DNA of 64,000 nucleotides from Escherichia coli. Lineage in GTDB: Bacteria; Pseudomonadota; Gammaproteobacteria; Enterobacterales; Enterobacteriaceae. The position numbers were made by a program. Of the stretch, positions 53,101 through 56,100 are shown one piece after another (the stretch's first letter is position 1; every line of letters starts with the position of its first letter). The stretch lies in the NCBI RefSeq assembly GCF_016903815.1, contig NZ_CP069973.1; one strand, 5' to 3'.

Positions 53101-56100
53101 CCGCTGCCACACCGCTTTTGGCAAATAGTCCGGTTTTACTGGCGGCGTCTAACAGATTGTTATCCAGCCCCAGCACCACATCGGCTTTACTATTTTTGCC
53201 TTCCATCCGTAGACGGTTGAGAAGCGAAACGCCATCTTCCAGCGCCACCAGTTTCAGTTCGCAGTTACAGTCGGCTTCAAAAGCTTTTTTGATCTTTGGA
53301 CCAGGCCCCCAGTCGGCGGCGAAGGAATCGTAGGTATAAACAGTCAGAACGGGTTTAGCGAAAACGGGCGCTGTGCACAGCAACAGCAGGGGAAGACATT
53401 TTTTTAACACTTTGCACCTCAAAAAAGAGTGGCAAAGGACTTGAGAAGGAGCCTCAAATCCCTTCGCCGGCGTTATCCGGATCAGGTTCGACGGGTATTT
53501 TCTCAGCGCACGCGTTTGCGTGGCACCCCGTTGAGAACGGCGTTAGTGTAGTGATTTTGTTATCTACCAGCAATCATGGATCCGGCGGCGCAAACCACGC
53601 TGATTTAAAATCGAACCAGCCGAGGGTATTCATACGCAGGCCGCGCATACTGCGTTGTCCCTGAATGATCAGCCAGTGGTGGATAAGCGGCACCATTGCT
53701 TTACTGGCGACCAGTTGCTGGCACCAGTTCGCCAGGTTCATTTCGCCATTGCGCCAGCGGGCGGCGTCGGCTTGCCAGTCGATCGGAATACAGTGTTGGA
53801 GCAGCGGCACCTCGCACAAGTGCGCGAACAGCGAAAAATCCAGCGGCAGCGTAAAGTTGGCGCTATTAAGCCAGATATCGCTCTCGATCTCTCCTTCATG
53901 CCACTGATCGTAGCTGATCTCTTTGATTTCCAGCGTGACCTGGTGACTTGCCAGAATCTGCTGCATGATCCCGGCAATCACCCGATGCTCACTGTGATCC
54001 TGATAAAAGGTCAGGGTGAGGCTTTCCAGGCCAGCCGGTTTTTCGCTCTTTATGGTGCGGGCATGGTGCCAACGGGGGAGCAGTCCATAAGCCGGGAACC
54101 ACAGTTGCTGGTACTGTTCCTCAGCGAAATAGACCAGATTAGTTGGAGAAAGCACATAGCTTACCCAGTCCCTGACTTGCTGATTCGCCCCGCGATGGGT
54201 GCGGCTGTCGAACAGTAAATAGTAGCAACCTTCCTCCAGGCGGCTTTCAATCTCTTTTTCCTCGCCCTGTGGACCTTTTAGCATCAGACCTCCAGCTGGC
54301 TCGTCGGCAATTTCCGGCAGAACCCAGACGTTAACTTCATCGATTAATGCCCGGTAACCGAAGAAGTCATCGAATGCCTGAATTTTCAGTTGATTGGTGG
54401 TGTTGCGGATCACCGCATACGGACCGGTGCCGATGGGATGGCTGGCAAAGTTACTGAGGGTTTCCCATTCGCGCGGCAGGATCATCGCCGGAACTTGTCC
54501 CAGCAGTAACGGTAACCAGCGGTCCGGTTGCGTGAGATGGATATCCAGCGTCCAGGGCGTCGGCGACACAATGTCCGCAATATGCGAATAGAGCGGCAGC
54601 GTATTGATTCGTTTTAAAGAGGCGATCACGTCGTCCATTTCCAGTTCACGACCATGATGAAAATGGACTCCTGGACGCAAAAAGAAACGCCAGTGAAGCG
54701 GTGATATTTGCTGCCAGTGGTGGGCGATGTCTGCTTCCAGTTCCCCATTTTCCTCATTTATGCGCGTTAGCGAACTGAAGATTTGCCGGGCAATATGGGT
54801 TTCGGAACGGCGCAATGCGCTGCCAGGTAGCAGATTACGCAACGGACGATAGTAGAGCACGCGCAGGATGTGCCGCCCCTGGCGGAAGCTGCGGCCCAGA
54901 TGAGAAACCAGCATTTGCCGCACAGTCGCTTTGTCGCCAACCAACTGCACTAGTTGGTCGATACGATCCTGCTCCAGCAGGTCTTCCGCCCGCTGTTGCT
55001 GAAGCGCCAGCCCGGTATAGAGGAATGTCAGACGCGAGCGTTTACCGCGCCCGACTTCCGCTTCCCACGTCAGCCAGCCGCGATCCTGCATGGTGTTGAG
55101 CAGGGTACGCATATGACGACGCGAGCAGCTCAATAACGCTGCCAGTTCGTTGAGCGTTGTGTCCTGCGATTTACCCTCGCAGCATTGCCACAGGCGGATG
55201 AACTGTTGTTGCAGACGAGCAGATGGCATAAAAGGGGAACTCCTGCGCAAAAGACAGCAATTTTATTTTCCCTATATTAAGTCAATAATTCCTAACGATG
55301 AAGCAAGGAGGTGCCCCATGCGTCAGTTTTATCAGCACTATTTTACCGCGACAGCGAAGTTGTGCTGGTTGCGTTGGTTAAGCGTCCCACAACGATTAAC
55401 CATGCTTGAAGGACTGATGCAGTGGGATGACCGCAATTCTGAAAGTTGACTTGCCTGCATCATGTGTGACTGAGTATTGGTGTAAAATCACCCGCCAGCA
55501 GATTATACCTGCTGGTTTTTTTTATTCTCGCCGCGCTAAAAAGGGAACGTATGATCTGGATAATGACGATGGCTCGCCGTATGAACGGTGTTTACGCGGC
55601 ATTTATGCTGGTCGCTTTTATGATGGGGGTGGCCGGGGCGCTACAGGCTCCTACATTGAGCTTATTTCTGAGTCGTGAGGTTGGCGCGCAACCTTTCTGG
55701 ATCGGACTCTTTTATACGGTGAATGCTATTGCTGGGATCGGCGTAAGCCTCTGGTTGGCAAAACGTTCTGACAGTCAGGGCGATCGGCGAAAACTGATTA
55801 TATTTTGCTGTTTGATGGCTATCGGCAATGCGCTATTGTTTGCATTTAATCGTCATTATCTGACGCTTATCACCTGTGGTGTGCTTCTGGCATCTCTGGC
55901 CAATACGGCAATGCCACAGTTATTTGCTCTGGCGCGGGAATATGCGGATAACTCGGCGCGAGAAGTGGTGATGTTTAGCTCGGTGATGCGTGCGCAGCTT
56001 TCTCTGGCATGGGTTATCGGTCCACCGTTGGCCTTTATGCTGGCGTTGAATTACGGCTTTACGGTGATGTTTTCGATTGCCGCCGGGATATTCACACTCA

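Follow-up and report, generated by a model that had tools for sequence, protein, structure and literature searches.

In the 64-kb stretch of Escherichia coli chromosome analysed here (the window), positions 53540..53408 of the minus strand almost certainly form the 5′ leader of the thiB-thiP-thiQ mRNA, which carries a TPP-sensing OFF riboswitch acting by translational sequestration. The element belongs to the Rfam family RF00059 and is already known as the thiB/tbpA TPP riboswitch of E. coli; it is annotated in RefSeq and has a characterised, published mechanism. The preliminary description had placed a TPP riboswitch in the thiBPQ leader and aptly labelled it a known element; that reading is borne out by the RF00059 match, by public annotation and by experiments in K-12, and nothing contradicts it.

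A covariance-model scan covering both strands of the entire window (Rfam 15, run at gathering thresholds), which is the check that the preliminary description had proposed, places RF00059 at 53540..53441 (-) with 66.1 bits and E = 8.9e-11, above the gathering score of 54.3. The match is full-length (model positions 1–105 of 105) and is the sole TPP match in the 64 kb. The interval first given for the element, 53440..53535, covers the same object, lacking about 5 nt at its 5′ end. The THI-box motifs are present on the minus strand where they had been reported, CTGAGA at 53506..53501 and ACCTGATCCGGATAACGCCGGCGAAGGGA at 53487..53459, and they comprise the ligand-contacting UGAGA junction (53505..53501) and the pyrophosphate arm CCUGAUC..GG....CC..GCG.AGGGA (53486..53459). 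Four matches in the window exceed their gathering scores: TPP, SgrS (55297–55523, plus strand, 230.7 bits), the leucine operon leader (61503–61652, minus strand, 145.8 bits) and the ES003 sRNA (7073–7125, plus strand, 87.4 bits), the last three being expected in this stretch of the E. coli chromosome.

The RefSeq/PGAP annotation of a strain that is 100% identical here has a "TPP riboswitch" at L001 4161–4260, equivalent to window 53540..53441, and starts thiB at L001 4291, equivalent to window 53410. The element lies on the thiB-thiP-thiQ strand, 30 nt 5′ of the GTG and upstream of thiB as described, and the GTG start that had been named, placed here at 53410..53408, agrees with PGAP. The frame opens GTG TTA AAA AAA TGT (M L K K C), giving a protein that begins MLKKCLPLLLL. 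Many E. coli chromosomes match the 401 bases around the riboswitch at 100% identity; in them PGAP has sgrR, a "TPP riboswitch" and thiB at equivalent coordinates, and the riboswitch is likewise annotated at matching coordinates in related strains. The 168-nt leader is found at ≥90% identity in 5398/5426 complete E. coli genomes; three of the 5399 places that match it sit on records labelled as plasmids. A chance or decayed look-alike of the THI box that plays no regulatory role in this strain is practically inconceivable: it is opposed by the low E-value of a full-length match, by an aptamer and platform that equal the functional K-12 allele outside the P3 loop, and by the near-universal presence of the element in E. 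coli and its conservation across Enterobacteriaceae. The features of the leader and operon are collected in Table 1.

Table 1. Features of the thiB leader and operon in the window, and P3 insertions in the thiB loci of relatives
Feature	Position	Strand	Basis or remark
Putative -35 TTGCTG of the thiBPQ promoter	53568..53573	-	Read from sequence
Putative -10 TACACT (TACAAT in most relatives)	53545..53550	-	Inferred
TPP riboswitch aptamer (THI element), RF00059	53441..53540	-	Rfam match; PGAP feature on the same bases
P1 5′ strand CUCAA	53531..53535	-	Pairs with UUGAG 53457..53453; Rfam alignment
P3 hairpin GCCACGC-AAAC-GCGUG(C)GC	53506..53524	-	Rfam alignment
UGAGA, pyrimidine-sensing junction	53501..53505	-	Invariant, 78 loci
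P4/P5 pyrophosphate-sensing arm CCUGAUCCGGAUAACGCCGGCGAAGG	53461..53486	-	Rfam alignment
Anti-P1 (antisequestering) hairpin, ON state	53434..53464	-	AAGGGAUUUGAG 53464..53453 pairs with CUCAAGUCCUUU 53445..53434; 7-nt loop
Sequestering hairpin, OFF state	53410..53437	-	CUUUGC(CA)CUC pairs with GAG(GU)GCAAAG
Shine-Dalgarno GAGG	53420..53417	-	Read from sequence; inside the sequestering hairpin
thiB GTG start codon	53408..53410	-	Sequence, ORF, PGAP
thiB (tbpA), thiamine/TPP periplasmic binding protein, first gene under the switch	52427..53410	-	ORF and PGAP of a 100% identical strain
thiP	52451..50841	-	ORF and PGAP
thiQ	50857..50159	-	ORF and PGAP
sgrR stop codon TGA	53576..53574	-	Read from sequence
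P3 segment, 133–140 nt	L007 2266–2402; also L012, L016, L023, L036, L051, L054, L060, L077, L081		
P3 segment, ~215 nt	L027, L038		
P3 segments, 38–80 nt	L013, L014, L017, L018, L065, L070, L075, L083		

The alignment of the window aptamer shows P1 (CUCAA/UUGAG), P2 (CGGG/CCCG plus a U-A pair), P3, the UGAGA junction and the P4/P5 arm, and lacks P3a, a hairpin that is optional in the Rfam consensus (10 model positions deleted). The pair at the base of P4 (53483/53464) is G.A in the window and in 53/53 aligned enterobacterial thiB leaders; the Rfam consensus is G-U, and Infernal applies no penalty here. The thiM riboswitch of E. coli, whose aptamer has a crystal structure (cited in PMC10578472), belongs to the same family RF00059 and likewise switches translation off by sequestering the Shine-Dalgarno sequence, but it sits at another locus and has a different expression-platform sequence, and the missing P3a and the G.A pair set the thiB aptamer apart from it. 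Downstream, the overlapping frames of thiB, thiP and thiQ are consistent with a single transcript.

The expression platform is built around a short repeat. The linker UCUCA (53446..53442) has the same sequence as 53536..53532 of the P1 5′ strand and is complementary to the P1 3′ strand. Furthermore, CUUU (53437..53434) is common to the anti-P1 helix and the sequestering hairpin, so that the full forms of the two are mutually exclusive. In the mechanism, which is published for the K-12 allele and probably holds for this one, TPP would bind the aptamer (P1–P5, 53540..53441) during transcription and hold P1 (CUCAA/UUGAG) closed, leaving the linker CUCAAGUCCUUU unable to invade it. The CUUUGC of the linker would then pair with GCAAAG, which lies immediately ahead of the GUG codon and extends into it, and the CACUC segment would form a short pairing with the Shine-Dalgarno bases GAGGUG; together with CUUUGC/GCAAAG this would make a hairpin that hides the Shine-Dalgarno sequence. 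With that sequence and the first base of GUG hidden, the 30S subunit would not be recruited. When TPP is absent, the linker would displace the P1 5′ strand to form the 12-bp anti-P1 hairpin (53464..53434), which would take CUUU from the sequestering stem, making the ribosome-binding site accessible and turning translation on. Lower translation would come with a modest drop in mRNA.

Folding calculations with ViennaRNA give -15.0 kcal/mol for the anti-P1 hairpin and -11.6 or -6.8 kcal/mol, depending on the register, for the sequestering stem. The two registers of the upper part of this stem were compared, and neither was clearly better. In the ensemble with the aptamer enforced, the Shine-Dalgarno sequence and the start-codon flank GCAAAG are fully paired; with the anti-P1 hairpin enforced, GCAAA is unpaired with probabilities of 0.71–0.97. 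Without constraints, the minimum-energy structure combines the sequestering hairpin with a shortened anti-P1 hairpin and has no aptamer fold. Such folds mix ON and OFF elements, and folding was therefore used solely to score named structures. Equilibrium folding that makes no clean ON/OFF split fits the modest, 2–4-fold regulation reported for this switch and the published decision during transcription.

Experimental evidence for the mechanism comes from K-12, which has the same locus in the same order, sgrR - riboswitch - thiBPQ. With the K-12 thiB leader, expression of an sfGFP reporter is repressed by TPP, and point mutations in the aptamer leave it constitutively ON (Berman 2023, PMC10578472). 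A weaker sequestering stem abolishes the TPP response, and deletion or randomisation of linker nucleotides 95–99 makes the leader constitutively OFF (PMC10578472). The antisequestering stem was seen by SHAPE-Seq of stalled elongation complexes, and mutagenesis of the K-12 sequence also supports the role of anti-P1 (PMC10578472). Fusions to lacZ are repressed at both the translational and the mRNA level (Grondin 2024, PMC11487190). In the same work, G35C (window G53504) abolishes TPP regulation, U130A in the GUG codon abolishes translation, the 30S toeprint is reduced by TPP, and sensing is more efficient co-transcriptionally (PMC11487190). The K-12 allele also undergoes TPP-dependent changes in RNase H and smFRET assays (PMC10578472, PMC11487190); like the toeprint result and the unresponsive aptamer mutants, these are indirect evidence that it binds TPP directly and specifically.

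These results bear closely on the window. K-12 W3110 shares with it P1, the anti-P1 linker, the sequestering stem, the Shine-Dalgarno sequence and the GUG start, and from the 5′ end of the aptamer to the start codon the two differ at two P3-loop bases and nowhere else. Among the leader alleles compared (the window, K-12 W3110 and the espY2-island strains O157:H7 Z866 and MB53), differences are confined to this loop, which is AAAC in the window, GUAC in K-12 and GGAC in O157. Outside the leader, K-12 differs at 53565, a single base of the putative promoter spacer, and by a synonymous change in thiB codon 6 (CTT in the window, CTG in K-12). The AAAC allele of this strain probably behaves as the K-12 allele does, and a functional difference between the two is not expected.

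The published data also bear on the level at which the switch acts. It is conceivable, if unlikely, that control is mainly transcriptional, TPP leading to Rho-dependent termination or RNase E cleavage in the leader or early thiB, with a secondary translational effect. The thiB gene has a Rho termination score of 3.0 by ChIP-qPCR (PMC5499598), and transcriptional lacZ fusions are repressed by TPP 1.6- to 3.9-fold, and 2.4-fold with the start codon inactivated (PMC11487190). However, TPP represses a short reporter to the same degree when bicyclomycin is added, and single-round transcription in vitro yields the full-length product only, with no TPP-dependent or intrinsic termination (PMC10578472). 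TPP's effect on the 30S toeprint is direct, a conserved hairpin encloses the Shine-Dalgarno sequence, and the authors name translation as the primary level of control (PMC11487190). For the thiM riboswitch, a secondary Rho-linked effect on mRNA is reported (PMC11487190, PMC5499598). The thiC riboswitch, which has the same ligand and aptamer family and is larger than that of thiB, contains a Rho-binding site in the riboswitch domain and a regulatory pause at the start codon (PMC11487190), and its Rho score is 12, against the much lower value for thiB (PMC5499598). On our assessment of this evidence, translational sequestration is the primary mechanism in the thiB leader; the mRNA-level effect is real, and it may be caused by Rho, by RNase E or by the mRNA being untranslated.

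A classical attenuator, in which a hairpin before the six-U run that follows CACUC (53426..53421) would form an intrinsic terminator with TPP, is extremely improbable. The run itself is present, but it is the loop of the sequestering hairpin and not the tail behind a G+C-rich stem, and in relatives it is replaced by varied sequence; the single-round transcription experiments described above likewise speak against it (PMC10578472). The attenuator was rejected because the terminator scan finds none on the minus strand here.

A ThiB scan of representative genomes was limited to the best 80 relatives, all enterobacterial loci with 81–98% ThiB identity, of which 78 were informative (one locus that had no upstream DNA and one with a truncated aptamer were left out). 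The THI-box core, the P1 5′ strand and the start motif [AG][AG]GGTGCAAAGTG (Shine-Dalgarno/GTG) are kept in 78/78 of these, UGAGA is invariant in all 78, and the pyrophosphate arm is invariant or nearly so. The distance from aptamer to GTG is 48–54 nt in 77/78 loci. Of 20 relatives' loci scanned with RF00059, 15 exceed the gathering score.

In an alignment of 53 distinct enterobacterial leaders, 99.2% of cells are paired for P1 and 95% for the OFF structure. The anti-P1 helix (12 pairs) is 99.7% paired with three one-sided changes (e.g. U.G to U-A), and its loop varies in sequence and length; the sequestering helix is paired in 96–99% of cells, in two alternative registers. P3 is the only helix with compensatory changes (5/7 pairs, 44 cells, above all 500 shuffles). 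The paired positions of P4/P5 are invariant, and P1, P2, P4 and P5 show no variation among these close relatives, in which all helices can form. Since P1, P2, P4 and P5, along with most of the expression platform, do not change among these close relatives, covariation is uninformative there and neither supports nor refutes them. The alignment shows strong purifying selection on both alternative structures, which is not independent covariation proof of them.

A peculiarity of the relatives is the content of the P3 apex. Around a dozen species, among them members of Citrobacter, Raoultella and Pseudocitrobacter, share an imperfect-palindrome repeat in this part of the thiB aptamer; it measures ~135–140 nt, and ~215 nt in two of the species (Table 1). 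The repeat carries GTGACTGGGGTGAGCG, which we take to be the ERIC core, as recognised from the ERIC1R and ERIC2 primer sequences, and the repeat is presumably ERIC-like. It weakly matches Rfam V_AS5 (50.9 bits, below the family threshold) and is predicted to fold as a long extension of P3. The segments of 38–80 nt look like remnants of the ERIC-like repeat. The insertion pulls the TPP score below gathering (48.5 bits for L007, from Citrobacter amalonaticus, whose P3 insert is ~120 nt), and 4/4 repeat-bearing loci scanned were missed. The window has no match to the ERIC core at ≤3 mismatches. A literature search on ERIC and riboswitches gave general reviews of repeats only, and among these results we found no paper describing the P3 insertions.

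Two loci are altered further. Citrobacter sp. wls619 (L012 2326–2500) has a second, inverted copy of the repeat in the expression platform, where it follows GCCACC and precedes the Shine-Dalgarno sequence, and its aptamer-to-GTG distance is 175 nt as opposed to 48–54 nt. Judging by its position, this copy would move the two halves of the sequestering stem apart. In a Pluralibacter MAG (L071 2082–2470), the 5′ two-thirds of the aptamer are replaced by unrelated AT-rich DNA, while GGCGAAGGGATTTGAGG..CTCAAAATCCTTTGCC and the Shine-Dalgarno/GTG are kept and the anti-P1 and sequestering elements remain. A 487-aa ORF, a 135-aa ORF and a small reverse ORF lie upstream in place of sgrR. If this arrangement is not an assembly artefact, it predicts that thiB would be constitutive and blind to TPP.

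Upstream of the aptamer, TTGCTG directly follows the sgrR TGA (53576..53574) and is separated from TACACT by 17 nt. Two 5′ ends are implied by published numbering: nucleotide 1 of the transcript is 53540 if counted from the 142-nt construct that includes 12 nt of thiB (PMC10578472), and +1 is 53538 if U130 is the middle base of GUG (PMC11487190). TACACT lies 5–7 nt upstream of these ends. In most of the relatives' leaders, TACA[A/C]T is at a similar distance from P1 (roughly 8–11 nt). From this placement and from conservation we infer that TTGCTG/TACACT is the thiBPQ promoter. The consensus promoter scan of 53300..53800 called no sigma-70 site, and TTGCTG-17-TACACT matches 7/12 consensus positions; this poor match of the putative promoter fits the low native thiB expression noted by Grondin et al. 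(PMC11487190).

The end of sgrR is 33 nt from the aptamer match (window 53541–53576), and the terminator scan finds no terminator on the minus strand between the two. Because no terminator-like minus-strand site lies between the genes, transcripts might read through from sgrR into the riboswitch. It is an improbable idea, suggested by geometry, that the switch also gates such transcripts, in which case thiBPQ translation would be under TPP control in two classes of mRNA. If true, this would tie the transcription of a sugar-phosphate stress regulator to thiamine uptake.

The same boundary is a site of insertion. Roughly a fifth of complete E. coli genomes (1047/5399 have no contiguous match), O157:H7 and O145 among them, have an island of ~1 kb (L002 4997–6000; L003 3659–6000) that separates the sgrR stop codon from the thiB leader and bears the T3SS effector gene espY2 on the opposite strand. 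The island joins at window 53576, a single base upstream of the putative -35, and TTGCTG is kept in the strains with the island. In strain MB53, espY2 itself is split by an IS4-like element. The setA gene, which lies between leuD and sgrT in the window, is absent from O157:H7 Z866 and MB53, the two island strains examined.

The P3 repeats that defeat the Rfam threshold and the effector island near the putative -35 may be of mild interest to riboswitch annotators and to studies of aptamer insertions. For the genome at hand, the value of the element lies in completeness of annotation: an annotation restricted to coding sequences would miss the element that sets the expression of the thiamine/TPP ABC transporter.
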